Origin: Candidatus Latescibacterota bacterium
GTDB taxonomy: Bacteria; Latescibacterota; UBA2968; UBA8231
Assembly: GCA_965200315.1 (NCBI GenBank)
Contig: OZ241362.1
Coordinates: 1,664,001-1,728,000, forward strand
Direction: 5' to 3'
Length of the DNA: 64,000 nt
Shown here: positions 1-38,592 of the stretch, in pieces
Layout of the letters: the number at the start of each line of letters is the position of its first letter
Position numbering within the stretch: the stretch's first letter is position 1
Notes under the pieces: model-generated
Databases searched by the model: none
Told to the model about the DNA's origin: nothing
Seen by the model: only the letters and a program-made list of their open reading frames with translations
Position numbers and translations under genes: made by a program

Positions 1-1
1 C

Positions 2-2041
2 AGACCGGTCCCGATTCTGCTGGCACTGGCCTGCGGGCTTTCCGCCACTGGCGCCCAAGAGATGCGGTTTGGCCAAGGCGGCAACATCACCTGGCAAGGA
101 GCGGTCTCCGGGTTGGACGGCGTCGCCACCATCCAGCCCGAATTCCGCCCTTCCCTCACCCCGCACACCACCGCAATCGGCGTGGCTCCGGACGACCGGA
201 TCGATCTGGTGCATTCCGACTATCCCGACGCCATTCTGCCCATCCGGCTAGACGAAGGCGAGAACCTGTCCGCGAGCCTAGTCGCCGCAAGCGGCAGCAT
301 CGTCTCGGAAACGGCCGTGGAGATCAACAAAGACGAGCTGGCGGCGATCCTACAGGAGCTCCTTTCTCCCGAACCGACGGGCACGGCTTTCGAGCGCAAG
401 GGTACCAATATCCTCGGCACTCTGCTGACCGTGGACCTCGGGGCCATCGTCGGCGTCAACCGCATCCGCTTCTTTCCGCGCAACACCTTTCTCCCCGCGC
501 CGACCACGCCGTTCCAAAACGACTTTCTGCGAAACTTTGAATTGCGAATCCACGACGGCTTGCACCTGAACGAAGCCGGGTTGCCGGCCTTGGGGACTTG
601 GGAGTCCTTCCTGACCGTTCATGGCAGCACCGAGCCGGTGACGGTCGTGGAAATTGACCCGCCCCGCTACCTGCGCTTTGTCCGCCTGCGCGCCTCCTCG
701 TCCATACCCTTTGAGATTGAGAAGCTGCAAATTTTCGGCGAAGGCTTTTTCCCAGCCGCCCAGTATCTCTCGCCCATCGTCGATCTGGGCACCCCCAGCA
801 ACTGGGGCCAGATTCGCTGGACGCGGAACGTGCTAGGCGCGGAGCCCCTCACCGATCTCATCGTCCGCACCCGCACCGGCAGCGACGACACCCCCTTTGT
901 CTACAATCGCCGAGAGGTGGGCAACCCCAACGCCGAGGACATACCCTTCTCCATCGACAACCCAAGCGAACCTCTTTCCCGCGCCGAGTTCCTCGCCCTT
1001 CCCGTCAAGGGGACCGCCGCCGATCCCTACGAGCGCGGGTCTATACGGGACGATCTAGACCATTGGAGCCCGTGGTCGCCGCCCTACGCGGACGCGGACG
1101 GCTCCCGCAATATCTCCCCGGCACCCCGGACCTACATCCAGTTCCGGGTCGATTTCCTGAGCCGAGGGCTGCACTCGAGCCAGGTCCTCAACAGCGTCGC
1201 CTTGGAGTTCACTAGGCCGGCTCTGGCCGATGCCCTCATCGCCGAGGTCTTTCCGCGCACCGTGGAGGCCGCTCGAGCCATCGCCTTTGCGTATGCAGTG
1301 CGGGCCGAAATGGAGCGCACCGAACTTCAGGGCTTCAATGGTTTTGAACTATTCACGCAAGGACGGGTCGAGCGGATCACGCGCCTGGAGATCGTCTCCG
1401 CCGACGGCCAGCGCATCTTAGATCACACCTTTGAGACGCAGGACCGCGTCGCGGACGAGGGCCACGCAGCCATTACGTCCATCACCGATGCGGGGTTCGC
1501 GGTCCGCTTCCCCCGCATCGAAACCGACGGTACAATCCTCAAGATCCACTTCGTCAACCGCGTTTTGGCCTACAGTAGCGATTTCAGCGGGCGGGCACTG
1601 GTACAGGGAACCGATGCCTTTCAATGGGTGCAAGCCGGCAACGCGGCCGCGCTAGACGAGCGCGATGCCAGCTTCGATTCGGGCATCACCGTTTTGAGTC
1701 CGGCCGTGACCCGCAGCGGCCTGATCGGCAACTTCGCCCTTGACACCCCCGTTTTCACGCCCAACCGAGACGGCGTACGCGACGGCCTGCGGCTGCGCTT
1801 TGAGGTGCTCACGGTCGTGGGCGAAGCCGATATCGAGGTGGCCCTGTTCGATATTAGCGGCCGGCAACGAGCCACGATTTTCGCGCACCGAGGCGGCAAC
1901 GGCACCTACACCAGCCTCCACTGGGACGGCAGCAACGACCACGGCGAGCTGCTGCCTCCCGGGGTCTATCTCGTGCGGCTGGAGGTGGTCGGCGACGCCC
2001 GGTCCACCGCGGCCGTCCGCTCAGTGGGGATTGCGTATTAG
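2..2041 (+). CDS. Secreted protein, discoidin-like core + C-terminal TPNxDG/FlgD Ig-like domain (paralog 1; 5' end outside window)
   Basis: The frame is open from base 2 and encodes a signal-peptide-like RPVPILLALACGLSATGA-QE before the ORF-track Met at 62. Motifs: DLG..VNRIRFFPR, RTRTG, WSPWS, SPAPRTYIQF, FTPNRDG, WDGSNDHG..PPGVY, terminal GIAY. Confidence 0.75.
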   Translation, partial: RPVPILLALACGLSATGAQEMRFGQGGNITWQGAVSGLDGVATIQPEFRPSLTPHTTAIGVAPDDRIDLVHSDYPDAILPIRLDEGENLSASLVAASGSIVSETAVEINKDELAAILQELLSPEPTGTAFERKGTNILGTLLTVDLGAIVGVNRIRFFPRNTFLPAPTTPFQNDFLRNFELRIHDGLHLNEAGLPALGTWESFLTVHGSTEPVTVVEIDPPRYLRFVRLRASSSIPFEIEKLQIFGEGFFPAAQYLSPIVDLGTPSNWGQIRWTRNVLGAEPLTDLIVRTRTGSDDTPFVYNRREVGNPNAEDIPFSIDNPSEPLSRAEFLALPVKGTAADPYERGSIRDDLDHWSPWSPPYADADGSRNISPAPRTYIQFRVDFLSRGLHSSQVLNSVALEFTRPALADALIAEVFPRTVEAARAIAFAYAVRAEMERTELQGFNGFELFTQGRVERITRLEIVSADGQRILDHTFETQDRVADEGHAAITSITDAGFAVRFPRIETDGTILKIHFVNRVLAYSSDFSGRALVQGTDAFQWVQAGNAAALDERDASFDSGITVLSPAVTRSGLIGNFALDTPVFTPNRDGVRDGLRLRFEVLTVVGEADIEVALFDISGRQRATIFAHRGGNGTYTSLHWDGSNDHGELLPPGVYLVRLEVVGDARSTAAVRSVGIAY

Positions 2042-2050
2042 CAGGCTCTT

Positions 2051-4774
2051 ATGGAGCATTCCACAAAAAAACGAGGCCCGGGCAGAAGGTCGCGGGCGAT
2101 ATTGCGAGTCGCTTGTATCTTGCTCGCGGCAGGGACGGCGGATGGTCAGATCGACTACGGCGGTCGCCTCGGCGAGGTGCAGGCCGGCCGCCGGAGCTTT
2201 GTACCGCATGGGCCCACGACCCTGATGGAGGCCATTGATCCGGCCGTGCGAAAATGGTACGTGCCGCAGGAGCTGTACTCCCAGTCCGGGTTATGGCAGT
2301 GGGAGACCACCAACTACGCCCGCGAGCCGTACCTGGGCTATGTCAACAACACCCTCGAAGGCGACTTCTTCTACGATCTTTACGGCAATCTGCTCACGCA
2401 GGGATGGCTGCTGTACAACACCAACCAGACGAACCCGGTGGAGCGCGGACACGTCGTGTTTGAATCTCGCAACCTGAGCGACTGGTTCTCCAACATCGCC
2501 ATTGCATCCGAGGAGAAGGGCCAGTATCGCTACGCCCTGACCGTCGGCCGCGATCTGCGCACGACCCTGACCCCGATGGTCTTTTCAAAACCGAGGTTCA
2601 ACGGGGTGCAGCTCGATCTCGCCACCGACAAGTACCAGGGCACCATCATCTATTCACAGGGCGGCATCGGCGGCCCGTCGGACGTGCGGCCCCGCACCGA
2701 CGTCACCACGATCATGGGCGGCCGCTTTGTGACTCAGGTGGGCGATTTCGTGGAAGTGGGGTTCCACCTGGCCAACGCACATCAGTCCAACAGCCTGAAC
2801 GACCGGCTGATGGACAACCTGCTCTCCGGCTCGCTACCGGAATCCAAGAACGAGCTGGTTTCCACCGTCGAGATCGTCCTGCGCGACGACTCGCCCGAAG
2901 ACCTAGCGAGCGGCGCGTCATACTTTCCAGCCGGATCCGATATCGTCATCACCTATCTCGACGGCACCAAAGATGTCGGCCAGGATATTCGCTTCGCGCC
3001 CGTGGTGCAGGGTGGCATTCCCGGCAGGGGTTTTCTCACCGCCATCGGCAACGACGAGATCCGCCTGACATACGATTTCACCGATCCCTCGTTTGTCGCC
3101 CGGGCCCGGGCGGACCGCAGCGAAATTGTCAAGGTCGAATTTCGCCTGACCCTGGCCAACGACTACCAGATATGGATGACCTCGGATCAGCAGACCAGCC
3201 GCCGCGGCGAGCCCGTGTTGCTGATCGTGGAGCGGGCGGAAGGCAATGTCAGCGACGGCTCCAACCTGCGCGTCGTGCAGTTCGAGTACGGTCTGCCCAC
3301 CGCCACTCACCTGATCGGCAGCAGCCTGAAGGTGAACGACGTGTGGGGCTTTGACCTCTACGGCGAATACGACCTGGGGTGGAGCTACCGCAAATACCCC
3401 AATCCGCTGGCCGAGAGCCACGAGGTCTCGTCCGGCGTCCGCGGCCAGCGCGCCCGGCCGGCCTATATGTTAAACCTGAGCAAGCAGGCCCATCCGTTGT
3501 TCTTCTTCGGCGAGGTCTACGCCGTCGACCCCCTGTACAATACCCAGACCTTTGTCACAGATGCAGACGGCACCATGTTCTACGATGAGGACCGGTTGAA
3601 GCTGGAGCTGGTAGACGACAACGACGATCAGGACCGCCTCCCCGACTTATTCCGCCTCGACACCGTAGCCCAAGGCACGGCCGATCCCTTTGCCGCAGAA
3701 TTGGGTGCTGTCGATTTCCGCGTTTTTCCCGGCTGGGATCGCAACAACGATTTCATCCCCGACTTCAACCAAAACGACAATCGGGCCCAACCCAATACCA
3801 TTCCCGACTACGAGGAGCCGTTTTTGCGGTTCGGCACCGACCGCCCCGAATTTCTGCTCGGAGTCGACATGAACCACAACTACTGGGTCGATCGCTTTGA
3901 GAACGACGAGGAGCCAGACTACCCCTACCGCCGAGATCGCCGGGGCTTCAACCTGTTCGGGGGAGTCCATCTGGCCCGGGATCTAGCGGTCAAAGTCGGC
4001 GCACTCCGCGAGGCATCAATAGCGTCCGCCCAGCGCAATCACAGCGACTACGCCGTGCTGGAATGGGATCGGACCTCGCCGCGGTGGGGGCGGTTGCGCC
4101 TCTTTCAAATGTTGGAATGGGTCCGCGACGACCTCGCCGATCCGCTGCTGCAATGGGCACCCAACAATTCCCTGGCCGGCGGACGGGTCGTGCGCTTGGC
4201 CGATCCGCTGCTGGCCCGGGACGCTTCGATCAACCGTTCCTTTGTCGGCCACCACTGGCAGGCGGGGCCTTGGCTGGTGCAGAGCAAGTTGAGTTTTCTC
4301 CGCTTTGCCCAGCGGCTAGACGAACAGGAAAGGCTGCGCTACGGGCTCGACGAGTCCGACTTCTTCTGCGGCCTCATCAACAAGGCCGCCTACCGCTATC
4401 GCTTGGGGCCAGTGGAACTCGTGCCGCGGTGGAAGAGCGAATACATAAACCAGAGTCGCAGTCTGTTCAGCGACGAGGAACGCACCACATTGACCGAGTT
4501 GTTTTCCGGCTTGGCGATCGTGCCGCTCTTGTCCGCCACCACCTTGCAAGGAGGGGTCGAATACCTTCTTTCTTGGGACTTGGACGGCCGGGCAGCCGAT
4601 TTCACCACCATGTCTTACGGCTTGCAGCTTACCAGCACCTCGGCCTATCAGGGCTACGAGGTGTGGCTCGTCACGCGGTTTGTGGTGGAGCGCAAAGATC
4701 CGCGCGGGGAGGATGCCTTCACCAGGGTGCAATCGTTCATCAGCATATACGCTGGACTGGAAAAGGCGCAATGA
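2051..4774 (+). CDS. Large exported protein, predicted outer-membrane beta-barrel with Asp-rich (putative Ca-binding) loop
   Basis: 907 aa with an N-terminal basic + hydrophobic signal peptide. Many amphipathic beta-strands in the C-terminal third. Central DDNDDQDRLPD / DRNNDFIPD / DMNHNYWVD segments. Confidence 0.6.
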   Translation: MEHSTKKRGPGRRSRAILRVACILLAAGTADGQIDYGGRLGEVQAGRRSFVPHGPTTLMEAIDPAVRKWYVPQELYSQSGLWQWETTNYAREPYLGYVNNTLEGDFFYDLYGNLLTQGWLLYNTNQTNPVERGHVVFESRNLSDWFSNIAIASEEKGQYRYALTVGRDLRTTLTPMVFSKPRFNGVQLDLATDKYQGTIIYSQGGIGGPSDVRPRTDVTTIMGGRFVTQVGDFVEVGFHLANAHQSNSLNDRLMDNLLSGSLPESKNELVSTVEIVLRDDSPEDLASGASYFPAGSDIVITYLDGTKDVGQDIRFAPVVQGGIPGRGFLTAIGNDEIRLTYDFTDPSFVARARADRSEIVKVEFRLTLANDYQIWMTSDQQTSRRGEPVLLIVERAEGNVSDGSNLRVVQFEYGLPTATHLIGSSLKVNDVWGFDLYGEYDLGWSYRKYPNPLAESHEVSSGVRGQRARPAYMLNLSKQAHPLFFFGEVYAVDPLYNTQTFVTDADGTMFYDEDRLKLELVDDNDDQDRLPDLFRLDTVAQGTADPFAAELGAVDFRVFPGWDRNNDFIPDFNQNDNRAQPNTIPDYEEPFLRFGTDRPEFLLGVDMNHNYWVDRFENDEEPDYPYRRDRRGFNLFGGVHLARDLAVKVGALREASIASAQRNHSDYAVLEWDRTSPRWGRLRLFQMLEWVRDDLADPLLQWAPNNSLAGGRVVRLADPLLARDASINRSFVGHHWQAGPWLVQSKLSFLRFAQRLDEQERLRYGLDESDFFCGLINKAAYRYRLGPVELVPRWKSEYINQSRSLFSDEERTTLTELFSGLAIVPLLSATTLQGGVEYLLSWDLDGRAADFTTMSYGLQLTSTSAYQGYEVWLVTRFVVERKDPRGEDAFTRVQSFISIYAGLEKAQ

Positions 4775-7700
4775 CTCGCATTCTCAAGACCCTGTTGCTG
4801 ATCGGCAGCCCACTGTGGGCGCAGCAGGGCTACGACCTGCGCAACGATCAGATCGTCGTCGACCAAGCGCGGCACTGGAAGGCGTGGACCATGCCCGGCC
4901 ACCTCGTCCGCGTCGAGCGGGATGGCGCGGTGCAGGCGCGGGACTTTCGCACGGTCTATGAGCTGCTGGCCGACCGGTCCTTTGGTCGGCCGGTGATCCT
5001 CACCCGCGCCGCGCCGCGCATCGCCAACATGGACAGCACCCTCAAACTGGATTTCCAAGGCAATTCGGTTGCGGACCTAAGCGGCAATCTCGTCTACGAC
5101 TACCTAGTCCGCCCTGGGGTGAGCCGCGCCGGGTCCAATCCCCACCTGATGCAGCATATCGCCGACGGGGATCCGGCCACCTTCTGGGAACCCGACCTCG
5201 ACGCCCCACCCGAAGACTGGTGGGTCGAAGTGGACTTGGGCCGTCCAGTGCCCCTAGAGAGAGTTCGGCTGTCCTTTGCCGAGGAGGCACTGGGGGATCC
5301 CTTTTATCGGTTCATCCTCCTCCTCGGGCCGGCCCAAGGGAACTACGCGGATGAGACGCCCGGCAACATGGAGACCTTCATTCCCTTTGAAGGGGTGAAC
5401 ACAGACCAGCGCACCTTTGTCTTCGACGCGGAACGGGTCAGCGACGACCTGCCCGCAGACGACCGGGTTGCACCCAACAGACGCCTGCCTGTCACGGACA
5501 GCAACAAGCGCTCCAGCGCGTACTACGGAGTGGCCGAGCCGAGTCCAGAGTGGAGCGGCAAGCTGGTCGAAATCATCCGCATCGTGGTCACGGACACCCG
5601 CGGGGGCCGAGCCGAGCCGCTCAGCGAGGAGCAATGGCAGGCCCTGCCGGCGGCTGAGCGCGGCGACATCGTCTACTTCCTCAAGGACGGAGACTTTGAG
5701 GAGCCCGTGGATGAAGACACCTATTTCGCCCTCCCTACAGACCGGCAGGGAAGGCGGGTCCACTATCGCCGCGAGTTGCCGCGCCTCGCCGAGGTAGAGG
5801 CCTGGGGGCGGGGGGACGAAATCGGGATTGAGATGCTGGCCGGCAGCGGCACGGTGGAGCAGACTTCAACCGGCGGCGCTCCTGCTGCCATGTTCGATGG
5901 AAGCTATGGCAGTGCCAATCAGCTCAGTACTTACCTCATCTCCGCTCCCGGGCAGAATACCCTGACCATCGACATCGGCGGCACCGTTTGGCTGAAAGAG
6001 ATTCGCACCATCAGCCAGAACCCGCCGCGGGGCTACCTCTTGCGCGGCTCAAACGGCAATAGGGACGCGCAGGGAAACCTCCAGTGGGAGCAACTCTCCG
6101 CAGTCGAGCGCGAGACCAACCTCGACAACGGCTATTTCCGCCTCATCGCCGATGTACTGGCACCGGCCCGCCGCGTCCGCTTCCTCGATATGATCGCCTT
6201 TGCCCTGCAAGAGGACAGCACTGAACTCACCAGCCGCGTCTGGCCGCGGATTCGGCTGATGTGGATTTTCTCGGCCGGCCCGCCGGCCGAAGCGGTACTG
6301 GAATCAGACCTGATCGAGCTGCCTGGGGTGGTCACCCTCGGCGCGGTGCATTGGAAGGCCACAGCACCCCCCGGATCCGAGGTGCAGATCCGCACCCGCA
6401 CCGGCGACCAGCTCGTGGAGCGCATCCGCTACTTCGACAAGACCGGCAACGAAAAGACCAAGTCCCAGCACAAAAGGCTGTCCTTTACCCAGAAAGGCCC
6501 TATCGACACCTCCAACGTGGCCGGGCCGGGCTGGAGTGCTTGGAGCAGGAAGTACGAGCGTTCCGGCGATCCGGCCACCTCGCCGGGGCTGCGCCGCTTC
6601 CTAAAGATCCAGGTGCGCCTCGTCAATCACGACCGCCAGGCAGTGCCGGCCATTGAACAGATCCGCGTCGATTTGCAGACGCCGGTGGCCCAGCGACTGG
6701 GCGCCGAGGTCTGGCCCGAGCGGGCGACCGCCGGCCGTCTCGACACCTTTGAGGTCTTTGTGCAGCCCAGTTTCCTCGAGCAGCCCTCCAACAGCCACAG
6801 CCCGGGTTTTGACGAGGTCCTCGTCCGGGCCGATCCCCCGATTGATCTTCGCGTGCTAGACCTAGCGGTCGGCACCGAGCGCGAACTGTCTCGGAGCGAG
6901 CCTGCCCAGCTCTTTGAGCGACCCCACGCCCAAGGACTCGGGGATGCCGATGGCCAAGTCCTTCAGGTGCTCAGCGAGGGAGATTCGCTCTGGTTGCGCC
7001 TGCCCGGACCGATACAGAGCGTCCCCGAGGGCTTGCTCCCCCGCCTCTACTACCGCCAGCTCAACCCCGGCGACGAAGTACCCACCGGCCTCTACGGCCG
7101 GCTGCTGACCGCAAACAGCTACAACCGGCTACCCGAAAACGAGCGGGGCACCATTCGCCATTTCCGCCGCGATGGCACCGGGCTGGAGGAAGTAGCCCGC
7201 AACACCTACCAGAGCTTACCCGAAGAAGAGAAAGGCCCGGTGCGCTACTTCCGAGTCGTGACGAGCCTGGGGGAACAGACGGTGTTCACCGCGCTCGGGG
7301 ACTCCCTGAGCGATAGCCAGTACGCCCGGTTGAACGCCGACGAGCGCGGCCGGGTGGTTGGCCCTGGGCGGCTATTGCGCCTGCGCTTGTACTCGGCCGT
7401 ATATCTGCCGAGCACCCAGCTAGAGGTGGCCGTGCGCCACAGCAGTCTGGCGGCACTCTGGCAGGGCGCTGCGGGCCAAGATGTCACCACCCTGCGACCG
7501 GCCCGCTCCTTGGCCATCCAAGCTGGGGAAACAGGCGATGTCGTCACCGACCTCTCCATCGCCCCTAATCCCTTTACGCCCAACGGCGACCGGGTCAACG
7601 AAGAGGCCCAGATCCGTTTCTCCCTGTTCTCAGTGGCGGCCTCGCGCGCGGTCGCAGTGCAGATCTACGCCCTAAGCGGCGATCCCGTCCGCCGCCTAGC

Positions 7701-7860
7701 GCACCAGTTGGTGGGCGGTCCACACGTTGTCGCTTGGGACGGCCGCGACGATAGCGGGGCCTTAGTGGCCCCCGGTCTCTACCTCTGCCAAGTCGGCGTA
7801 GCGGCCGATGCCGAGGCTGGAAGGCGGAAACGCACACGCGTGATCGCCGTAGCGTATTGA
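4771..7860 (+). CDS. Secreted protein, tandem discoidin-like domains + C-terminal TPNGD/FlgD Ig-like domain (paralog 2)
   Basis: True start is ATG 4771 (ATGA overlap with the upstream stop), giving signal peptide MTRILKTLLLIGSPLWA. Motifs: DGDPATFW..WVEVDLG, RTRTG, WSAWS, FTPNGD, WDGRDDSG..PGLY, terminal AVAY. Confidence 0.78.
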   Translation: MTRILKTLLLIGSPLWAQQGYDLRNDQIVVDQARHWKAWTMPGHLVRVERDGAVQARDFRTVYELLADRSFGRPVILTRAAPRIANMDSTLKLDFQGNSVADLSGNLVYDYLVRPGVSRAGSNPHLMQHIADGDPATFWEPDLDAPPEDWWVEVDLGRPVPLERVRLSFAEEALGDPFYRFILLLGPAQGNYADETPGNMETFIPFEGVNTDQRTFVFDAERVSDDLPADDRVAPNRRLPVTDSNKRSSAYYGVAEPSPEWSGKLVEIIRIVVTDTRGGRAEPLSEEQWQALPAAERGDIVYFLKDGDFEEPVDEDTYFALPTDRQGRRVHYRRELPRLAEVEAWGRGDEIGIEMLAGSGTVEQTSTGGAPAAMFDGSYGSANQLSTYLISAPGQNTLTIDIGGTVWLKEIRTISQNPPRGYLLRGSNGNRDAQGNLQWEQLSAVERETNLDNGYFRLIADVLAPARRVRFLDMIAFALQEDSTELTSRVWPRIRLMWIFSAGPPAEAVLESDLIELPGVVTLGAVHWKATAPPGSEVQIRTRTGDQLVERIRYFDKTGNEKTKSQHKRLSFTQKGPIDTSNVAGPGWSAWSRKYERSGDPATSPGLRRFLKIQVRLVNHDRQAVPAIEQIRVDLQTPVAQRLGAEVWPERATAGRLDTFEVFVQPSFLEQPSNSHSPGFDEVLVRADPPIDLRVLDLAVGTERELSRSEPAQLFERPHAQGLGDADGQVLQVLSEGDSLWLRLPGPIQSVPEGLLPRLYYRQLNPGDEVPTGLYGRLLTANSYNRLPENERGTIRHFRRDGTGLEEVARNTYQSLPEEEKGPVRYFRVVTSLGEQTVFTALGDSLSDSQYARLNADERGRVVGPGRLLRLRLYSAVYLPSTQLEVAVRHSSLAALWQGAAGQDVTTLRPARSLAIQAGETGDVVTDLSIAPNPFTPNGDRVNEEAQIRFSLFSVAASRAVAVQIYALSGDPVRRLAHQLVGGPHVVAWDGRDDSGALVAPGLYLCQVGVAADAEAGRRKRTRVIAVAY

Positions 7861-7866
7861 GGACTG

Positions 7867-10044
7867 GTGAAAACTATGCTCGCCCATAGCGGATTTGCGG
7901 GTGCCCTGCTGCTGGCTCTGGCCAGCACCCTAAGTGCTCGCGCCGAATTTCATATGGGATCCGGACCGAATTCTTGGGAACGCTTTGTCGTCCCGGACGA
8001 GGGCGAGGCCGCCGGGACCTATGTGGTCGTAGATGCGGCCGGCAATGTGCTCCAGGAGCATCCGGTGCACTCCGTCGAGGAGCTGGGGGGCGGGACCTTC
8101 TTGGCCGAGTACAACTATCGCGGACCCGACCTGCCCGCTCTCGAAGCCGGTGCGCTCCAGGCAATCCGGGTCGACCCGCTAGTGAATCTGTCCCGCGACA
8201 GCCTCCTGTTCGCCCGCGGCGGCAGCATTTTTCACGGTCACAACACCTCTGCCCACCCGACCGAGGATCTGCTACGGCTCATCGACGGGGACCCCACCAC
8301 CACCCGCCTGATCCTGATTGAACAAAATCCGCTAGAAGTTGTGCCATTGATCCGCGGCGGCGTATTCTGGGGGGGCCATGCCTCGGCCGTCATCGTCAAC
8401 CTCGGAGCGGAAATGCCCATCAACCGCGTCCGCGTCTATCCGCGCCTAGGCCGCCTAGACGACGCGGCCGCTATCGCTGCGATGGACGCGCCAAAGCCAG
8501 ACCCAGCGCGGTTCGGGGAGACCAGCTTTGCCGACAACTATCTCGAGTGGTACGAAATTGCGGTGACCGATAATGCCGCTCCCATCGAAGAGCGACCCGG
8601 CGGGGGCGGCAGCGACCGGCCGGGGCAGGTGCAGTTCAAGCGTTTCTCCGAAACCACCGGCTACGTGGATTCGTCGGCCACGGACCCCAATTTCAAGGCC
8701 CTGATCCAGACCCGGGAGAACCTAGACCCGGTGATCGATTTGCGATTCCCCGTCCGCCACGAGCGATTCGTTTCGGTGCGGCCCTATATTCCCGAGCGAA
8801 CCTGGGAGATGGCCGAAATCGAGATTTACGGCGAGGGGTATGTGCGCCGCTCGGTCTACCGCTCGCAGATACTGGATTTTGGCCAGCCCATGGCCTGGAG
8901 CAAGATTCGTTGGACCGGAAACCGGCCCCTCGGCACCCAGATAGAGATACGCACTCGCACCGGGAATACCCCGCAGCCTGACCTCTTCCTGCGGCGCACG
9001 TTGAGCGGAAAGTTCCAGCCGATCGACTTCGTCGCGTACCAGCAGAATCTCACGTCGGACGAAGTCAAACGTACTACAGACCTAGATAACTGGAGCTTCT
9101 GGTCCGCCACCTACGATTTCGCGGCCGGCGAACGCGTCGCCGGCTCACCTGCTGCTACTTGGACGGACGGCACCCCGTTGCTCTCTCCCGGCCCGAGCCG
9201 GTACATTCAGTTCGAGATCGTCCTGCTGGCGACCCGTGAGCAGACGCCGCGCCTAGACGAATTGTCACTGCTGTTTTCCGAGACCCTCGCCGCAACCGAA
9301 CTCATCGGCGAAATCTGGCCCATCGAGGTAGATAGTTTTGAGCCTCATCTCTTCACTTATGTGGTCAAGCCCATCCTCCGCGAGGGCAATCGCGGCTTCG
9401 ACCGCCTAGAGATATTCACCGGCGGACCGGCCGCCGAGGTCCGAGCGGTGCGCGTGGGCGGAGAAGAAATCGCCGAGCGGTTCCCGCCCGAAATTCAGCC
9501 GGATCGCATCGTCGTCTCCTTCAGCCGGCTGGCAGATCCCCAGCAGGACAGCGAGAAGCGGATCGAAGTGGAGTTCAGTGCCCGGGTGCTGCGTTTCGGC
9601 ACCGAATTCAGCGGTTGGGTCTACGACAGCCGGGAGCCGGACCTGAAGCAGAGCATCAGCCCCGGAAACGCCACAATCCGTTTTGTCGGGGACGACCTCT
9701 CCGTCCGCACCCCCACCGGCGGCGACCTAGTGCAACGGCTCGAGCTCCGCCCCGGCGTCTTCACGCCCAACGGGGACGGGCTCAACGACGAGGTTTTCGT
9801 CTCCTTCGACCTGCGCGATTTGACTGCGGCGCGCCCGGTTGAGGTGCAGATATGGACGCTGGGCGGGCACCGGGTGCGGCAACTGCCCCCGGCCGCAATG
9901 GCCAGCGGCAACTTTACCCACCGCTGGAACGGCCGCGACGACGCCGGCCGCTTGGCACAGCCCGGGATCTATGTAGTGCAGGTCGAGTTGGACAGCGACG
10001 ACGGGCGAAAAACGGCCATCGGCGTCGTCTCCGTCGCCTATTAA
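7867..10044 (+). CDS. Secreted protein, discoidin-like core + C-terminal TPNGDG/FlgD Ig-like domain (paralog 3)
   Basis: GTG start after GAGG; signal peptide. Motifs: IDGDPTT, NLG..INRVRVYPR, RTRTG, WSFWS, SPGPSRYIQF, FTPNGDGLND, WNGRDDAG..PGIY, terminal SVAY. Confidence 0.78.
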   Translation: MKTMLAHSGFAGALLLALASTLSARAEFHMGSGPNSWERFVVPDEGEAAGTYVVVDAAGNVLQEHPVHSVEELGGGTFLAEYNYRGPDLPALEAGALQAIRVDPLVNLSRDSLLFARGGSIFHGHNTSAHPTEDLLRLIDGDPTTTRLILIEQNPLEVVPLIRGGVFWGGHASAVIVNLGAEMPINRVRVYPRLGRLDDAAAIAAMDAPKPDPARFGETSFADNYLEWYEIAVTDNAAPIEERPGGGGSDRPGQVQFKRFSETTGYVDSSATDPNFKALIQTRENLDPVIDLRFPVRHERFVSVRPYIPERTWEMAEIEIYGEGYVRRSVYRSQILDFGQPMAWSKIRWTGNRPLGTQIEIRTRTGNTPQPDLFLRRTLSGKFQPIDFVAYQQNLTSDEVKRTTDLDNWSFWSATYDFAAGERVAGSPAATWTDGTPLLSPGPSRYIQFEIVLLATREQTPRLDELSLLFSETLAATELIGEIWPIEVDSFEPHLFTYVVKPILREGNRGFDRLEIFTGGPAAEVRAVRVGGEEIAERFPPEIQPDRIVVSFSRLADPQQDSEKRIEVEFSARVLRFGTEFSGWVYDSREPDLKQSISPGNATIRFVGDDLSVRTPTGGDLVQRLELRPGVFTPNGDGLNDEVFVSFDLRDLTAARPVEVQIWTLGGHRVRQLPPAAMASGNFTHRWNGRDDAGRLAQPGIYVVQVELDSDDGRKTAIGVVSVAY

Positions 10045-10061
10045 GCGCAGCAAAATTTTAG

Positions 10062-10090
10062 TTGTATTGCACAAATTTAGTTCGTATCTT
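10062..10090 (+). promoter_or_regulatory. Putative sigma70 promoter for the 10167 gene
   Basis: TTGTAT-17 bp-TATCTT in an AT-rich intergenic region; strong RBS TAAGGAGAGG precedes ATG 10167. Confidence 0.4.
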
Positions 10091-10166
10091 GTCAGCCTAG
10101 CTCAGGCACTAGGCAGATACTCATCTGCACTTTTCCACTAACCCGCACACGTAAGGAGAGGTAATC

Positions 10167-11084
10167 ATGCGCAAGATACAGATGATTGCCATTGGCGTAA
10201 TGGCAGTTTCGACGGCCGTTTGGGCCCACGACCCGCCGGGTGAGGTCCGCAACGCGGTCCAGTTCCCGCCCGGCCTCGAGCCCACGATCGATGGCGACTG
10301 TTCCGACTGGGCCGCTGTCCCGGGCGACCAGTACTGGATGTTCACCGAAGACCTCTATCCGCTGGGCGAATTCCATCCCACCGATGGACTCGGCCGCGGC
10401 GAGAACGATGCTAGTTCTTTCCAAACCACGTACCGGGTCGGCTGGAGTGCCAACACGGGCCAGCTTTACTACTGCAACTCCGTGTTTGACGACGTCCACA
10501 ACATCGACCGCCCCGATTCCTACGACTGGTACCTCGACGACTCGAACGAGTACTTCTTCACGACCCGGCACCTGTCCGAGCAGGAAGTAAGAGATCTGCT
10601 CGAAACGAATGTCGCCGCCTATTGGGGCTTCAACTATGCCCTGCCTAAGTTGCCCGACGGTGGCTTCTGGATGGTGATCGGCATGTGCATCGGCTGCGAA
10701 TGGCTGGACAACGGCGACAATGAGTGGTACACCCTAGTACACGGGTTCGAGGGCGAGGAGTTTGGTGAGAGCACCTATCACTACGAGCACCGGATCCAAC
10801 CGATCGACTCTTGGACTACCGGCTTGGGCGAAGACTTCGGGCCTAGTGACATTACCCCTGCAACGCTCAGCGAGGGGCAGACCATCCATATCACCTTTGG
10901 GACCAACGACGACGACGGCGTCGGGCGCGGTGGCCATTGGAGCAGCGGTAGCGGCCTTGTCGGAGGCACTTGGCTGGGCCAAGGCGACTACTTCCTAGAG
11001 CCGATCAACCCTTCCATTAACTGGCCCGATGTGGACACCTCGGTCGAGGCGGAGAGTTGGGGCCGGATCAAGGCTCAGTTCTAA
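10167..11084 (+). CDS. Secreted acidic CBM9/sugar-binding-like protein with C-terminal TSVEAESWGRIKAQF tail
   Basis: Signal peptide ending AVWA. PTIDGDCSDW and YRVGWS..QLYY..FDDVH..DDSNEYF match the CBM9-like pattern. Strong RBS and its own terminator. Confidence 0.65.
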   Translation: MRKIQMIAIGVMAVSTAVWAHDPPGEVRNAVQFPPGLEPTIDGDCSDWAAVPGDQYWMFTEDLYPLGEFHPTDGLGRGENDASSFQTTYRVGWSANTGQLYYCNSVFDDVHNIDRPDSYDWYLDDSNEYFFTTRHLSEQEVRDLLETNVAAYWGFNYALPKLPDGGFWMVIGMCIGCEWLDNGDNEWYTLVHGFEGEEFGESTYHYEHRIQPIDSWTTGLGEDFGPSDITPATLSEGQTIHITFGTNDDDGVGRGGHWSSGSGLVGGTWLGQGDYFLEPINPSINWPDVDTSVEAESWGRIKAQF

Positions 11085-11116
11085 GCCCCAGCTTAGCAGA
11101 GTCTCTTGCAAAACGC

Positions 11117-11158
11117 ACGCTGGACAGGTTCGTTAGCCTGTCCAGCGTTTTTTATTTT
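11117..11158 (+). terminator. Rho-independent terminator
   Basis: Perfect 12-bp stem ACGCTGGACAGG / CCTGTCCAGCGT followed by TTTTTATTTT. Confidence 0.85.
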
Positions 11159-11338
11159 ACTGCTGTTACGCAGCTATCGTCATGCCTGCGAAGGCAGGCA
11201 TCCAGAATGCCCGTTCGAGGCTCGTGCGCTGGACTGGATTCCCGCCCCGTGTCGGGGCACGGGGTGACGTTCTTGCGCGGGAAGGACGACGAGTGGGCTG
11301 CAAGCGGTAGATGCGGCATAAGGCTGCGTAACAGCAGT
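11159..11338. mobile_element. MITE-like element 1 (180 bp)
   Basis: Perfect 16-bp terminal inverted repeats ACTGCTGTTACGCAGC (11159-11174 / 11323-11338), flanked on both sides by TATTTT (11153-11158, 11339-11344). Confidence 0.75.
11179..11287. repeat. REP/RPE-like palindromic unit pair inside MITE 1
   Basis: GTCATGCCTGCGAAGGCAGGCATCCA (11179-11204) and the inverted partner TGGATTCCCGC...GCGGGAAGGAC (11235-11287), which has an extra internal hairpin CCCCGTG/CACGGGG. Confidence 0.65.
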
Positions 11339-11344
11339 TATTTT

Positions 11345-11549
11345 ACTGACGTTCCGCCTGAGCTTCTAGGTGTGGGATGCTTCGCTTCGCTCAGCATGAC
11401 AAACGTCGGCTCTTTCCCGTGCCCTGTCGAAGCCTCCCACACCCCATCTGCGTCCATCTGCGTCCATCTGCGGATCACCTTGTAAATGACTGAGCACCAC
11501 AACGCCGAGCCGAAGCCTCCCACACCCCATACCTGTGCGTAACGTCAGT
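11345..11549. mobile_element. MITE-like element 2 (205 bp)
   Basis: Inverted ends ACTGACGTTCCGC (11345-11357) / GCGTAACGTCAGT (11537-11549) match at 12 of 13 positions and are related to the MITE 1 TIR. Flanked by TATTTT and TATTCT. Confidence 0.6.
11376..11530. repeat. Internal repeats of MITE 2
   Basis: REP-like GATGCTTCGCTTCGCTCAGCATGAC (11376-11400). A 20-bp direct repeat CGAAGCCTCCCACACCCCAT at 11428-11447 and 11511-11530. Three tandem CCATCTGCG(T/G) units at ~11444-11473. Confidence 0.7.
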
Positions 11550-11555
11550 TATTCT

Positions 11556-13445
11556 ATGGAACGCCGGCACCAAATCGGCTTGGCCCTGCTGACCCTGGCG
11601 GCCCTCACCCTGCGGTTGCTCTACGTACTTCAGGCCGACGACAACCCGCTCTTTGCCCATCCCATCGTCGACGCCCGAACCTACGTACGCACGGCCCTGC
11701 ACCTGTCCGCAGGCCAATGGCTGGGGCCCCCGCAGCCGTTTTGGCAGCCGCCGCTGTATCCTTACTTTCTCGGCGGTTTTTTCGCCCTGTTCGGCGAAAA
11801 TTACCACCTGCCCCGGCTCGTGCAGGCGGTCTCCGGGGCTGCGGTCTGCCTACTCGTTTTCGCCTTGGGCCGCCGGGCGTTCTCCGCTCCCGTAGTGGGC
11901 TGGCTCGCCGCGGGCGCGGCCGCGCTGTACGGCCCTTTCCTCTACTTCGAGGGAGAGCTGTTACCCGCCAGCTTGGCGGTGTTCCTCAACGCCCTAGCGC
12001 TGCTTGCCTTGCTGTGGGCCGCGGCCGGCGGTATCGGTCGCTGGCTGATCGCGGGCGTACTCCTCGGCGTGGCTGCGCTGACCGTCGCCAGCGTGCTCCT
12101 CTTCGTTCCCGTTGCCCTCCTGTGGGCGCGATACCAAGCGCGGGCCCCGGCCTCTGCGCTGGGCGCACTGATTCTCGGCCTTACCCTGGTCATCGCGCCG
12201 GTCACTTTGCGCAACCGCGTCGTCGGGGGCGAGTGGGTGCTGATCTCCTACAACGCCGGCATCAATTTCCACCTAGGCAACAATCCCGATTACGACCACA
12301 CCACGACCATCCGCCCCGGGCGTAGCTGGCGGGACCTGACCGACCTGCCTGAGCGGGAGGCCGGCATCACCGCCAAAGGGGCCTCCTCGGGATACTTTTT
12401 CGGCCGCTCTTATGAGTATGCCGCTGCTGATCCGGCAGGCTATGTCCTCCTGCAACTGCGCAAGTTCTATCTCTTCTGGCGCGGCGACGAGATCCCGCGC
12501 AACCTGAACCTCTATTACGCCCGCCACCAGTCCCCGCTGCTACAGGTGCTGTTGTGGATCCGCGGCCTTGCTTTTCCCTTCGGCCTCGTGGGGCCGCTGG
12601 CCCTGACCGGGCTGGTTCTCTACCTGCGGAATTCCCAAGCCCGCTCGCCAGCCGCAGACCTGCTGCTGCTGTTTGCGGCCGCCTACGCGCTAGCGGTAGT
12701 CCTGTTTTTCGTCACCGGACGCTATCGTCTCCCGGCCATTCCCCCCCTGCTCCTATTCGCCGGTTACGCACTGACGCGGTTGCGCTTGTTGCGGGGGCGG
12801 CAACTGGCCGGGAGTCTGGCCTTGCTCGCCGCGCTGGGGGTGGGCCTCAACGCCGGCACCCCGGCCATGGATATGGAGGGCGACAGCCAAGAGCACGTCT
12901 ATTTAGCATCGGCCTATGCCGCCGAGGGCTTGTTGGCCAATGCGCTCCGGCACTACGAGCAGGCACTGGAGCTGGAGCCAGCGCACGAGATCGCCCTCGA
13001 CGACGCCGGGGCCGTGCTGGCGCGACGCGGGAATTTCCGCCGGGCGGCGGCACACTGGGAGCGCCTGCTGCACCACTATCCCGACCGCACCGACGTCCGC
13101 TTTCGGCTGGCCGCGATGAGCCTCGACACCGGCGACTATGCGCGGGCAGAACGGCACTTTGAGCAGCTAACGACCGAAAAACCCGAGCGCACCGTGTTCC
13201 ACGCCCGCCTGGCCCAATCCCGCCGCTATCTGGGCGATCTCGACGGAGCGGCCACGGCCTACCGCCGCGCCCTCAAACTGGATCCACTGGCACTTCCACT
13301 GCATCGGCAACTGGCCCGGTTGGAGCTTGAGCGGGGCAACCAAGCCGCCGCCCTGCCACACGTGCGGGCACTGGAGCAACAGGCTGGTGAGGCCATCCAC
13401 CGCGAGGTGGAAGCATTGTACCGGCGCATGGGCAGGCACCCGTGA
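11556..13445 (+). CDS. GT-C glycosyltransferase (family 39/ArnT-PMT-like) with C-terminal TPR repeats
   Basis: Multi-TM N-terminal region with VDARTY and FWQPPLYPYFL motifs, plus RYRLP and NAGINFHLGNNP; helical TPR-like C-terminus. Start is ATG 11556, since the ORF-track start at 11535 lies within the MITE end. Confidence 0.8.
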   Translation: MERRHQIGLALLTLAALTLRLLYVLQADDNPLFAHPIVDARTYVRTALHLSAGQWLGPPQPFWQPPLYPYFLGGFFALFGENYHLPRLVQAVSGAAVCLLVFALGRRAFSAPVVGWLAAGAAALYGPFLYFEGELLPASLAVFLNALALLALLWAAAGGIGRWLIAGVLLGVAALTVASVLLFVPVALLWARYQARAPASALGALILGLTLVIAPVTLRNRVVGGEWVLISYNAGINFHLGNNPDYDHTTTIRPGRSWRDLTDLPEREAGITAKGASSGYFFGRSYEYAAADPAGYVLLQLRKFYLFWRGDEIPRNLNLYYARHQSPLLQVLLWIRGLAFPFGLVGPLALTGLVLYLRNSQARSPAADLLLLFAAAYALAVVLFFVTGRYRLPAIPPLLLFAGYALTRLRLLRGRQLAGSLALLAALGVGLNAGTPAMDMEGDSQEHVYLASAYAAEGLLANALRHYEQALELEPAHEIALDDAGAVLARRGNFRRAAAHWERLLHHYPDRTDVRFRLAAMSLDTGDYARAERHFEQLTTEKPERTVFHARLAQSRRYLGDLDGAATAYRRALKLDPLALPLHRQLARLELERGNQAAALPHVRALEQQAGEAIHREVEALYRRMGRHP

Positions 13446-15346
13446 GCTCCTTGCACCCAACCTACCGCGCCCTGTTGCTGGGCACCCTCGGCTGCCTGCT
13501 GGTCGGGGCCGGTTCCCAGTACACCGACATGATGCTCAAGCGCTCCGGTTTCACCGGGTGGTACTACACGCCGGGTGCGCTGATCATCCTGTTCCTCGTA
13601 GTACTGGTCGCCAACCCGCTCGCGGGACTCATGCGTCGGCGATGGATGTTGACCCCGGCCGAACTGGCGCAGATGTACGTGATGTGGATCGTCGGCTCAG
13701 CAGTGGCCACCTGCGGCATTGTCTCCTATCTGCTGCCGATGCTGACCAGCGTCGTGTACTACGCTAGCCCAGAAAATAACTGGACCTACGAACTGCTGCC
13801 GTTGATCCCGGATTGGGCCATTCCCAGCAAGGAATTGGGCGAGGTCAAGGATTTCTACGAGGGCGGGGCCGACAGCGTGCCCTGGCGGATGTGGCTTCCC
13901 CCCCTGCTCCACTGGTTGCCTTTCGCCCTCTCCCTGCACATTGCGATGATCGCCATCATGGTCATCCTGCGAAGGCAATGGGTCCAGCACGAGCGCCTGA
14001 TCTTCCCCATGACCCAACTGCCGATCGCCATGATCCAAGACGGGCAATCCCCGGCCCTGATCAAACCGCTGTTCAAGAGTGGGCTGTTCTGGCTCGGATT
14101 CGCTATTCCCTTCTTCATCCAGAGTTACAACGGCGTCAACCGCCACTTTCCCTTCCTGCCCCAGATCGCTATCGGGGGGTATTACCTCTATTTCCTCGAA
14201 GACCAGCTGCGCCTGCGGATCGGCATCAATTTCATGATGATCGGCTTCACGTACCTAGTGCGGCGCGAAGTTTCGCTGGGATTTTGGGTCTTTGCGATCA
14301 TCAACTTCGCCCAAGAGGCAGTGATGATCGTCTTGGGGGTCGAGCGCCACGAACCCCTGTTCAGCCCCTTCTCCCGCGGGGGCACCCTTGCCTCGCACCA
14401 GGGGTTCGGGGCCTTTGTCGTGCTGGCCCTGTTCAGCCTGTGGAACGGCCGCGGCCACATCGCACAGGTGGTGAGACAGGCATTGGGGCGCGGCCAGCGC
14501 GTGGACGACAGCGACGAAATTCTCTCCTACCGGGCAGCCGTGCTGCTGCTGTTGGGTTGTGTGATCTTCATGGGCTTCTGGCTGTGGCAGACGGGCCTGC
14601 CAGCGTGGATCGCGGTGATCTTTCTCTTTCTGGCCTTCATCCTGTTTCTCGGCATCACCCGGATCATCTCCGAAGGGGGCCTGCCCTACCTGCTGGCGCC
14701 GATGGTAGCTTCCGACGTAGTCGTTGGCGGGATCGGCACCCGGGCCTTGGGAGCAACCGGCATCGCCGCCCTGTCTCTCACCTACATGTGGGCCAGCGAC
14801 ATCATCACCTTCGTCATGGTCTCCTGCGCCAACGGGCTCAAGGTGGTCGAAGAGCACGTCAAGCGGGGGCGGCGGTTCATCTTCCCGAGTCTGGTGGTGG
14901 CACTGATCGCGACCATGTGCAGTTCGGCTTGGGTGCTGCTGACCATTGCCTACGAGCACGGCGGGCACAACACCTCCCACTATTTCGCCGGGCAATCGCA
15001 GTATCCCTTTGAGGACGCCTTGGCCCGATTGCGCACCAGTGTGGGGCCTCAGTGGGAATACTGGGGATATATGGCCATCGGCGGTGGAATCATGGGCGGG
15101 CTGATAATGCTGCGCCAGCAATTCGTCTGGTGGCCTCTACACCCGATCGGCTTTCCCATCAGCCTAGTGATTCACAAGATGTTCTTCACGGTGCTGGTGG
15201 CTTGGCTTCTAAAGACCGCGATACTTCGCTACGGCGGTCCCAAGCAGTTCAGCCGGCTGCGGCCGTTTTTCCTCGGACTCATCCTCGGAGACTTCTTCCC
15301 GTTGGCCTTCCTGTTGCTGCTCGACCAGTTGGCGGCGCGGTTGTGA
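13442..15346 (+). CDS. DUF6785/DUF6784-like polytopic membrane protein (putative transporter)
   Basis: Very hydrophobic 634 aa. Motifs YYASPENNW, LRRQWVQHERLIFP, DDSDEILSYR, WWPLHPIGF, RPFFLGLILG. GTGA overlap with the upstream gene. Confidence 0.7.
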   Translation: MSSLHPTYRALLLGTLGCLLVGAGSQYTDMMLKRSGFTGWYYTPGALIILFLVVLVANPLAGLMRRRWMLTPAELAQMYVMWIVGSAVATCGIVSYLLPMLTSVVYYASPENNWTYELLPLIPDWAIPSKELGEVKDFYEGGADSVPWRMWLPPLLHWLPFALSLHIAMIAIMVILRRQWVQHERLIFPMTQLPIAMIQDGQSPALIKPLFKSGLFWLGFAIPFFIQSYNGVNRHFPFLPQIAIGGYYLYFLEDQLRLRIGINFMMIGFTYLVRREVSLGFWVFAIINFAQEAVMIVLGVERHEPLFSPFSRGGTLASHQGFGAFVVLALFSLWNGRGHIAQVVRQALGRGQRVDDSDEILSYRAAVLLLLGCVIFMGFWLWQTGLPAWIAVIFLFLAFILFLGITRIISEGGLPYLLAPMVASDVVVGGIGTRALGATGIAALSLTYMWASDIITFVMVSCANGLKVVEEHVKRGRRFIFPSLVVALIATMCSSAWVLLTIAYEHGGHNTSHYFAGQSQYPFEDALARLRTSVGPQWEYWGYMAIGGGIMGGLIMLRQQFVWWPLHPIGFPISLVIHKMFFTVLVAWLLKTAILRYGGPKQFSRLRPFFLGLILGDFFPLAFLLLLDQLAARL

Positions 15347-17351: not shown

Positions 17352-17465
17352 GCGGCACCGGAGTTTGTATGGGACGAGTTGACGGCCTGCGGAGAAATCG
17401 CCTGCTTGTTTGGAATAAATTAAAGAAGCGACAATTTATGCGTTGTGTCGACGAGGAAGGAGCTT

Positions 17466-21789: not shown

Positions 21790-21844
21790 CCCGATCCCTG
21801 ACGGGCAGATGGCCGATAAAGTATGCCGCGGCAGGTACGCACGG

Positions 21845-22900: not shown

Positions 22901-23685
22901 GGCGTGCCTTCCTTTATCAGTTCTGAAACTGGCTGCGACCTTTCCCAGCGCAGCGCGACCTCTTGGTCCATGCCGCAGAGCCAGTTCCAAGTGCGGATGC
23001 GCCGCACCCGGTCTCGGTAGGATTCGACTTCGGTTACGTAGGGCAGACGCGGGCGGTCGCGATAGGCGGGAATTTCCGCCGCATCGCAGAGCCAGTCCCG
23101 CTGCGATGCGGCCGTGCGGTGGTAGGAAAACTTGATCATGCTGCGGGCGCGGTCGTTGGTTTTGGGGCCGGCCTTGTGCCAGATGCCATAGCGAGTCAGC
23201 ACCACGGTGCCGGCCGGCACGGTCAGCGAAACTTGGCCGCAGATATCGCCGTAGTGGGCGATGGCTTCGCGATCGACGGCGCGGCAATGCGAACCGGGTA
23301 GAACCATGGTCGGCCCGTCGGCGAGCCCGACGCGGTGCGGGTAGTAGTAGCACTGGAGCTCGACGACATCGTAGCCGCTGCCCGAAAGCCCGTCCGAATG
23401 CCAAGTCTGGCCGAGGTGCGGCTCCTTAAAAAAGTGGTGGTGGCCGCCTCGGGGCACCAAGAAGTCCTCGCCCAAAAGCGAACGCGCGACCCCGGCGACT
23501 TGGGGATGCAGGAGCACCTGCTGGGTGAAGTCGTCCGAGGCGATAAAGGCGTCGCAATTGCCGGGGGCGAGATCGTCGCAGCAGCGATTGAAGCACTCGT
23601 CGATGACGCTTTCGCAGACGACCAAGCCGGAGGCGACAAAGTCCATGACGCCGTCGTCGTCTAGCGTCGGTCTAATTGGGGACAT
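22897..23685 (-). CDS. Phytanoyl-CoA dioxygenase (PhyH) family Fe/2OG enzyme
   Basis: WHSDG (HxD), GPTMVLPGSH, VPAGTVV..IWH motifs. Confidence 0.85.
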   Translation of the reverse strand: MSPIRPTLDDDGVMDFVASGLVVCESVIDECFNRCCDDLAPGNCDAFIASDDFTQQVLLHPQVAGVARSLLGEDFLVPRGGHHHFFKEPHLGQTWHSDGLSGSGYDVVELQCYYYPHRVGLADGPTMVLPGSHCRAVDREAIAHYGDICGQVSLTVPAGTVVLTRYGIWHKAGPKTNDRARSMIKFSYHRTAASQRDWLCDAAEIPAYRDRPRLPYVTEVESYRDRVRRIRTWNWLCGMDQEVALRWERSQPVSELIKEGTP

Positions 23686-23694
23686 CCGTTCCTC

Positions 23695-38589: not shown

Positions 38590-38592
38590 CGA

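Follow-up and report, generated by a model that had tools for sequence, protein, structure and literature searches.

What kind of cell-surface apparatus is encoded by a run of tightly packed genes at one end of a 64,000-nucleotide (nt) stretch of a Candidatus Latescibacterota genome, and what might it be used for? The stretch (hereafter the window) corresponds to bases 1664001-1728000 of a closed 5.36-Mb genome, and its positions 1-11084 hold five genes, all on the same strand. An original prediction, made from the sequence alone, had described them as three paralogous secreted proteins with a FlgD-type tail (hereafter scaffolds), one outer-membrane barrel and one CBM9-like protein. We found that the locus is one of about 30 copies of an outer-membrane cassette, lineage-specific and heavily duplicated, in Candidatus Latescibacterota. 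The cassette is a variant on known kinds of system and has an undescribed barrel family at its centre. No published description of it was found in the main texts of the literature searched, and we found no paper joining Latescibacteria with type IX secretion. A paper on sponge Latescibacterota genomes (PMC12993501) makes no mention of a secretion system, outer membrane, FlgD, gliding, discoidin or sulfatase.

Gene layout and recurrence of the cassette

The operon starts about 6.3 kb upstream of the window, where three further co-directional, closely spaced genes lie. The unit contains the following features, with protein lengths in amino acids (aa).

Upstream of the window: PpiC/SurA-like lipoprotein, 543 aa, with a PpiC-type rotamase domain (Rotamase_2, 53 bits) and a weak SurA_N match
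Upstream of the window: second barrel, 888 aa, a paralog of the 907-aa barrel with 52% identity
Upstream of the window: membrane protein, 655 aa, with PMT_2 and TPR matches
1..2041, + strand: scaffold paralog 1 (class S6, about 681 aa), with a signal peptide, a discoidin-like region and a type IX secretion system (T9SS)-type C-terminal domain at about 1751-2038
2051..4774, + strand: 907-aa outer-membrane β-barrel (barrel B), with a signal peptide, a conserved N-terminal segment, a β-sandwich insert and about 26-28 strands
3617..3937, + strand: invariant Asp/Asn-rich segment in the barrel, residues about 523-629, seen in the alignment; low confidence in the structure prediction, unmodelled
4771..7860, + strand: scaffold paralog 2 (class S4, 1029 aa), with a signal peptide, F5/8 type C (discoidin) matches, an insert and a T9SS-type C-terminal domain at about 7540-7857
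7867..10044, + strand: scaffold paralog 3 (class S7, 725 aa), with a signal peptide, a CBM32/discoidin domain, immunoglobulin (Ig)-like β-sandwiches and a T9SS C-terminal domain
10120..10166, + strand: probable separate transcript start of the CBM9-like gene, where an RNA-library contig starts
10167..11084, + strand: 305-aa secreted protein, divergent and CBM9_1-like, ending in the conserved tag TSVEAESWGRIKAQF
11117..11148, + strand: intrinsic-terminator-like hairpin with a 14-bp stem followed by TTTTTATTTT, which closes the unit

The tight coupling that had been claimed was present at all three junctions. The TAG of scaffold paralog 1 (2039-2041), a gene whose true start is a GTG 5 nt upstream of the window edge, is followed after a 9-nt gap by the ATG of the barrel gene (2051). 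The barrel gene and the gene for scaffold paralog 2 share an ATGA overlap at 4771-4774, and the TGA of paralog 2 (7858-7860) is separated by 6 nt from the GTG of paralog 3 (7867). A 122-nt gap with a AAGGAGAGG ribosome-binding site precedes the ATG of the 305-aa gene (10167). As had been predicted, all five products carry signal-peptide-like N-termini when the sequences are judged by eye; by the same inspection, those of all three scaffolds are hydrophobic and end in an Ala-X-Ala-like sequence. RNA-library contigs span the locus. In a terminator scan, 11117-11148 was the sole long-stem site; the total number of terminator-like sites equalled the shuffle expectation, so only this strong site was counted. 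A sigma-70 promoter scan returned one site against 3.0 expected and is uninformative for Latescibacterota. Past the terminator, the intergenic sequence (11085-11534) includes short dispersed repeats, of which the genome has about 30 partial copies, and both the DNA and the RNA assemblies break there.

The composition originally proposed, three scaffolds plus one barrel plus one CBM9-like protein, proved too small, as the unit also has the PpiC/SurA-like lipoprotein, the second barrel and the PMT_2/TPR protein. Searching the genome by tblastn with each part and extending the matches to intact frames, we counted 102 scaffold, 37 barrel, 37 DUF6785, 22 SurA-like and 10 PMT genes. The cassette genes group into about 30 loci with three conserved orders, in which scaffold classes (S) were defined by all-against-all BLAST clustering. 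The long type, present at six loci including that of the window, reads SURA, S4, BARREL, PMT, S6, S7, BARREL, CBM9L; the window's locus departs from this order in having S4 placed after the second barrel. The second type reads S5-S5-S2-BARREL, with or without SURA, and the third reads S7-S3-S7 or S7-S3-S6, followed by one or two BARREL genes and then SURA. Barrel clades track cassette type. The window's barrel is most closely related to those of the other long cassettes, and cassettes have therefore been duplicated as whole units.

The barrel was present in all 18 genomes of the genus, at about 30 matches each, and in 106 of 168 genomes of the phylum. These comprised all 75 genomes of the same family and most genomes of other classes, and none of the 56 genomes from three sister families of the same class. 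The window's exact gene order recurs in genomes whose barrels are 92, 91 and 74% identical to its own, while others carry the alternative long order; the orthologous loci L048 and L049 were left out of this comparison. One genome of another class has the parts in a single string, CBM9L-SCAF-SCAF-SCAF-BARREL-PMT-SURA. The idea of a fixed multi-gene outer-membrane unit was thus upheld by the cassettes within the genome, by orthologous loci at 74-92% identity and by a different class. Lack of synteny elsewhere had been named as grounds for abandoning the system; the homologs are syntenic, so that objection fails.

The scaffold tails and the barrel family

The ordered motifs that the original prediction had listed for the three scaffolds were recovered as invariant columns of a three-way alignment: RTRTG, WS.WS, SP, E(V/I)(W/F)P, FTPN.D, W.G..D.G, PG.Y and a terminal AY. 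By BLASTP, paralog 1 matched paralog 3 with an E-value of 1e-39 across about 600 residues, and paralog 2 matched paralog 3 with E-values of 4e-21 in the tail and 6e-10 in the core. These invariant, ordered motifs and E-values show the three tailed proteins to be true paralogs and not a chance resemblance. Pfam scores for the scaffolds were weak, at 26-30 bits for FlgD_ig, 16.9-21.9 bits for CHU_C and about 25 bits for F5/8 type C. Paralog 1 scored 19.5 bits for CHU_C (cut-off 27) and also matched the C-terminal stretch of PorU; paralog 2 scored 24.9 bits for F5_F8_type_C, 26.3 for FlgD_ig and 16.9 for CHU_C, each below its cut-off.

We modelled paralog 3 with AlphaFold2 from 62 homologs (mean predicted local distance difference test score, pLDDT, 85.1) and compared the model with 48,161 solved chains using VIA-align. 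Residues 103-325 (8173-8841) adopt a CBM32/discoidin fold, the middle consists of Ig-like β-sandwiches, and residues 619-725 (9721-10041) form the T9SS C-terminal domain. The discoidin-like region suspected from the sequence was therefore confirmed by fold in this paralog. Its β-sandwich is like that of CBM32 (the discoidin, or F5/8 type C, fold), although the scaffolds score below the Pfam cut-offs and long insertions stretch about 126 aligned residues over 220.

The C-terminal tail of the scaffolds is a β-sandwich sorting domain of about 80-100 aa that resembles known T9SS C-terminal domains, and the tails match the last ~90 positions of the PorU model in NCBIfam. Scaffold homologs in a large protein collection mostly carry PF13585 (CHU_C), which we take to be the type B tail family, together with PF13860; some have been named 'gliding motility-associated-like protein' by the Joint Genome Institute (JGI). 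The genome holds 107 CHU_C matches at E<=0.001 (best 47.6 bits), and many paralogs exceed the cut-off of 27. The T9SS core, defined here as SprA/Sov, PorU and PorV and leaving GldK/L/M/N outside the search, is represented by SprA_N (80.5 bits, in a 2134-aa frame), by PorU (615 bits, above cut-off) and by an adjoining PorV-like gene (149.8 bits, below the cut-off of 250). Because the tails match T9SS C-terminal domains and a T9SS core is encoded in the genome, we identify what had been called the 'FlgD tail' as a T9SS sorting domain, and the scaffolds as cargo of that system. The type B model (TIGR04131) matched all seven tested scaffolds at 18.6-30.3 bits, below its cut-off of 35 in every case, and the type A model (TIGR04183) matched three of the seven, one above cut-off; judged by these NCBIfam scores, the class of the tails is ambiguous. 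Across the phylum, strong and numerous CHU_C tails occurred only in barrel-positive families, with 26-257 first-look candidates (54-257 in the genus of the window) and best E-values mostly of 1e-8 to 1e-14, against 2-11 matches with best E-values of 1e-4 to 1e-6 in barrel-negative families; the genomes behind these counts are kin and not independent.

The AlphaFold2 model of the 907-aa protein, which is of moderate confidence (pLDDT 71.8; predicted template-modelling score 0.72), is a β-barrel of long antiparallel strands, which number about 26-28 by a manual count from the model's secondary-structure string. A β-sandwich is inserted at about residues 272-400, and the N-terminal segment is conserved and modelled with low confidence. 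The Asp/Asn-rich segment is almost invariant even in a broad alignment of the family; its invariant residues are D523, N524, D525, D526, D528 and D532, then D563, D567, D571, N573 and N575, and further on D606, N608, N610, D614, E617, N618 and D619. This segment may form a metal-binding loop or a constriction.

The 907-aa barrel matched no Pfam or NCBIfam family. A word-indexed search returned 583 homologs; among the 120 listed, none had a Pfam domain and the named ones were all 'hypothetical protein'. A profile search of 1.84 billion cluster representatives retrieved 942 proteins at E<=1e-3, of which 313 reach E<=1e-30; the family is small, restricted and undescribed. Solved structures gave generic large-barrel matches only, with template-modelling (TM) scores of 0.17-0.24 and no close solved fold. 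The best Foldseek matches were chains of SlpA (E-values 1.4e-8 to 7.6e-8; TM 0.17-0.18), the Deinococcus radiodurans protein whose C-terminal β-barrel is reported to have 30 strands (PMC9388160). The SlpA_C family (PF21620) matched locally in 10 of 31 divergent barrel members, at 18-30 bits against a cut-off of 35 and at profile positions ~226-330, and one barrel paralog of the same genome scored 22.7 bits, also below cut-off; the 907-aa barrel itself had no SlpA_C match. Profile searches of PDB sequences with close and broad barrel alignments found nothing relevant, SlpA included.

Several identities proposed for the barrel were rejected. Neither barrel of the unit contains a Plug or TonB_dep_Rec match at E<=0.01, and with TM scores of about 0.2 that are generic, a TonB-dependent receptor of the SusC kind is excluded; the 15 Plug matches in the genome lie elsewhere. 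The original description of a barrel without a TonB plug thus holds, given the β-barrel model and the lack of any family match. PorP/SprF was rejected because neither barrel has the Pfam match, PF11751 is found zero times in the genome and hhalign gave a probability of 0.9% when the barrel profile was compared with four PorP-like proteins from the phylum. SprA, PorV or a soluble protein, identities that would have made the locus a known one, disagree with the absence of a family match and with the β-barrel model. DUF6029, carried by the nearest Pfam-bearing atlas cluster (0.89), matches a different 523-aa protein of the genome and not the barrels. An usher is made less likely, and not rejected, by the absence of usher and PapD matches in Pfam among the barrels and neighbouring genes scanned.

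The CBM9-like protein and the cassette flanks

Neither Pfam, PDB sequences nor BLAST linked the 305-aa protein directly to CBM9. Nothing matched at a threshold as loose as E<=1, nor is the protein similar to the CBM9_2 protein that the window also encodes. The latter is a bona fide member (141.9 bits) encoded at 59118-60143 on the + strand; a 1157-aa PD40/DPPIV_N β-propeller protein is encoded at 55872-59345 on the - strand. A distant paralog of the 305-aa protein scored 23.8 bits for CBM9_1 against a cut-off of 23.4, and among the members of the nearest atlas clusters the share with CBM9_1 is 13%, 37% and 100%. Calling the protein CBM9-like is thus plausible, on indirect evidence. Members of the family end in T(A/S)VE..SWG(R/Q)IK plus a few residues (11040-11084 in the window); we know of no described tag like T(A/S)VE-xx-SWG(R/Q)IK. 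A regular-expression scan located this tag on 46 open reading frames (ORFs) of at least 80 aa in the genome, about half of them beside cassettes and the others elsewhere, in proteins of differing sizes. The tag may be a sorting or docking signal.

The CBM9-like gene had also been predicted to have a promoter of its own. In two RNA-library runs it lies on its own contig, from 10120 to 11262/11263, at depths of 261 and 215. RNA contigs over the upstream genes reach about 5-18, and depth in the DNA runs is flat. The RNA contigs all stem from a single study, and the depth of contigs reflects abundance poorly; the data weakly suggest a separate, very abundant transcript. Of the earlier description of this gene, separate promotion thus received weak support, and the CBM9 assignment stands by indirect similarity only.

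Downstream of the unit, the window contains the following genes and frames.

11535..13445, + strand: PMT_2 (GT-C type glycosyltransferase-like)/TPR membrane protein, with a PMT_2 match of 34.8 bits and TPR matches; paralog of the upstream PMT_2 gene
13442..15346, + strand: DUF6785/DUF6784 polytopic membrane protein (392 and 89 bits), hydrophobic in sequence
15357..17351, - strand: second DUF6785/DUF6784 membrane protein (408 and 94 bits), convergent with the first
15363-17423, + strand: 686-aa frame antisense to the preceding gene, with no family match; most likely a spurious high-GC frame
17445-18596: GFO/IDH/MocA oxidoreductase, part of a sugar-acid context
20629-26233: M19 dipeptidase, two UxuA-like/xylose-isomerase-fold proteins and a zinc alcohol dehydrogenase
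37523-40835, - strand: TPR-ExbB-ExbD-ExbD-TonB string

The genome has 37-38 copies of DUF6785, many beside cassettes and many alone. By their sequences, the DUF6785/DUF6784 proteins are candidate inner-membrane transporters of an expanded family; a full-text literature search for DUF6785 found no paper. The TPR-ExbB-ExbD-ExbD-TonB string resembles a gene set beside barrels in a distant family (locus L042, G041:C3:66001-86000). There, two tandem barrels are flanked on one side by a CHU_C/discoidin protein and a FadL/PorV-like barrel, and on the other by a 1100-aa TPR/YfiO-like protein, DUF5683 and ExbB. This neighbourhood hints at a link between the barrels and an Exb-type motor.

We surveyed 145 ORFs around 12 cassettes. 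Recurrent genes encode MR_MLE and UxuA-type dehydratases, GFO/IDH/MocA oxidoreductases, FGE-sulfatase, sulfatase and sulfatase-maturation proteins, as well as PhyH proteins, M19 peptidases, FG-GAP/UnbV_ASPIC proteins and transporters. PhyH-family dioxygenases are strikingly common in the flanks. Pairs of FG-GAP/UnbV_ASPIC proteins and long TPR proteins recurrently flank short cassettes (L017, L019, L022, L023, L025 and L038, in this genome and in G040). The suggestion that the neighbours fit a glycan-foraging role gained only moderate support: sugar-acid, oxidoreductase, sulfatase-maturation and PhyH genes recur, whereas glycoside hydrolase families went unmatched among all 145 flanking ORFs.

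Capture, anchoring or adhesion

Polysaccharide utilization loci (PULs) of Bacteroidota combine a SusC/SusD barrel with surface glycan-binding proteins and occur as many paralogous cassettes per genome. We read the Latescibacterota cassette, at a probability of roughly 45%, as a PUL-analogous unit in which T9SS-displayed lectin-like proteins and the barrel would serve capture and uptake. The scaffolds would cross the inner membrane by the Sec pathway and the outer membrane through the T9SS translocon, and would be kept at the cell surface on the co-encoded barrel, or on lipopolysaccharide via PorU. Their lectin-like domains would catch glycan or glycoconjugate substrates, and the barrel would let the products through to the periplasm. 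From there, the products would pass to the neighbouring sugar-acid, oxidoreductase and sulfatase-related enzymes and to membrane transporters, with the PpiC/SurA-like lipoprotein acting as a chaperone for the assembly of the barrel or of the cargo. The barrel itself may act as a channel, as an anchor that holds the tails, or in both roles.

Each cassette would then be a functional analogue of a Bacteroidota PUL made of other parts. Both kinds of system comprise dozens of cassettes with an outer-membrane barrel and carbohydrate-binding-type surface proteins, and have catabolic genes and transporters adjacent. By contrast, neither a TonB-dependent plug, nor a SusD-like protein, nor any glycoside hydrolase was seen in or near the Latescibacterota cassettes examined, and their binding proteins are T9SS cargo instead of lipoproteins.

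Several points weigh against capture and uptake. No energised uptake is evident for a barrel that lacks a TonB plug, and 184 residues of its model fall below a pLDDT of 50. The flanks are free of glycoside hydrolase families in all 145 ORFs, unlike those of classical PULs. TonB-dependent receptors, counted as first-look Plug candidates, number about 7-34 in barrel-positive and about 12-45 in barrel-negative families, with no clear inverse relation to the presence of the barrel and no sign of replacement. Because the class of the tails is ambiguous, they may be attached by PorU with no role for the barrel. Host adhesion would be an equally natural use of lectin-like surface proteins in a sponge associate.

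A bolder form of the capture reading makes the cassette a TonB-independent counterpart of Sus/PUL systems. The giant barrel would be both a docking site for T9SS-delivered lectins, as PorP/SprF are, and an uptake channel gated by the Asp/Asn-rich metal-binding segment, with about 30 substrate-specific cassettes per genome. We regard this form as doubtful.

Also unlikely is that the barrel is a mere surface anchor or shuttle for T9SS cargo, a counterpart of PorP/SprF for type B tails that transports nothing. Two studies indicate that Bacteroidota type B cargo binds, is genetically linked to and depends on its cognate PorP/SprF barrel (PMC9143113, PMC12618676). In such systems (SprB-SprF of Flavobacterium johnsoniae, PG1035-PorP of Porphyromonas gingivalis), as in the Latescibacterota cassettes, surface proteins bearing a C-terminal domain adjoin an outer-membrane β-barrel, many paralogous pairs of cargo and barrel occur per genome, and the T9SS core is present. 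The scaffold tails match CHU_C, adjoin barrels and co-occur with them where they are strong. PorP_SprF (PF11751) turned up in none of the 75 genomes from the window's own family and in 26 of 31 genomes of one barrel-negative sister family, with 30 genomes of the phylum above cut-off. However, this complementarity is imperfect: PorP_SprF was detected in 1 of 22 and 0 of 3 genomes of two other barrel-negative families, and some families have both PorP_SprF and the barrel. The PorP_SprF matches are also marginal (20-28 bits), and the tails, whose class is ambiguous, score below the NCBIfam type B cut-off. At about 900 aa, the barrel is roughly three times the size of PorP/SprF proteins (about 300-400 aa) and has no detectable profile similarity to them; anchoring alone explains neither this size nor the tandem barrels. 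The Latescibacterota unit further differs in having three cargo classes along with PpiC/SurA-like lipoprotein, CBM9-like and GT-C/TPR proteins.

The cassettes could instead form a variable adhesin coat within the sponge. With their lectin-like scaffolds, the cells would bind glycans of the host or the matrix, either to attach or to evade recognition by the host, and the paralogs would supply diversity of binding. The sequencing runs that contain the locus are sponge metagenomes, CBM32/discoidin and Ig-like domains are frequent in adhesins, some homologs bear the gliding-motility name given by JGI, and glycoside hydrolases are lacking nearby. Nevertheless, the barrel family extends to many genera in several classes of the phylum, and adhesion would not need the constant coupling to a barrel, a PpiC lipoprotein, transporters and catabolic genes. 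We consider an adhesin coat improbable.

There is little to recommend a T9SS-independent translocon of usher or two-partner type, in which the barrel would export the neighbouring scaffolds with the PpiC/SurA-like lipoprotein as periplasmic chaperone. A chaperone-like gene is adjacent in 22 loci, and the early β-sandwich insert of the barrel presumably resembles the plug domain of an usher. On the other side, the scaffold tails match T9SS C-terminal domains in a genome whose T9SS looks complete, usher structures match the barrel no better than LptD, MtrB, SlpA or Omp85 barrels do (TM <= 0.24), and no usher or PapD family was found by Pfam. We hold this export role to be very unlikely. A last reading, which makes the barrel a giant porin or envelope protein of general function, distantly akin to SlpA and co-located with the scaffolds through co-regulation only, is scarcely credible: SlpA gives the best Foldseek matches and sub-threshold SlpA_C hits in part of the family, yet the TM scores are very low, no Pfam match exceeds its cut-off, PDB-sequence profile searches do not return SlpA, the barrel has no SLH or coiled-coil part, and about 40 copies per genome in conserved cassettes argue for specialised partners.

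If capture and uptake is the correct reading, a candidate phylum common in sponges and sediments would have a major nutrient-capture apparatus that has gone unannotated and that fills a large part of this genome, where 5.4 Mb contain about 100 genes for scaffolds and about 40 for barrels. T9SS biology would reach past Bacteroidota, with a new partner barrel for cargo bearing a C-terminal domain, and a new family would be added to the very large outer-membrane barrels. For annotators, the cassette provides a name and a gene-order signature for hundreds of 'hypothetical' proteins, and the barrel, the tail, the CBM32 domain and the C-terminal SWGRIK tag are defined parts for experiments.

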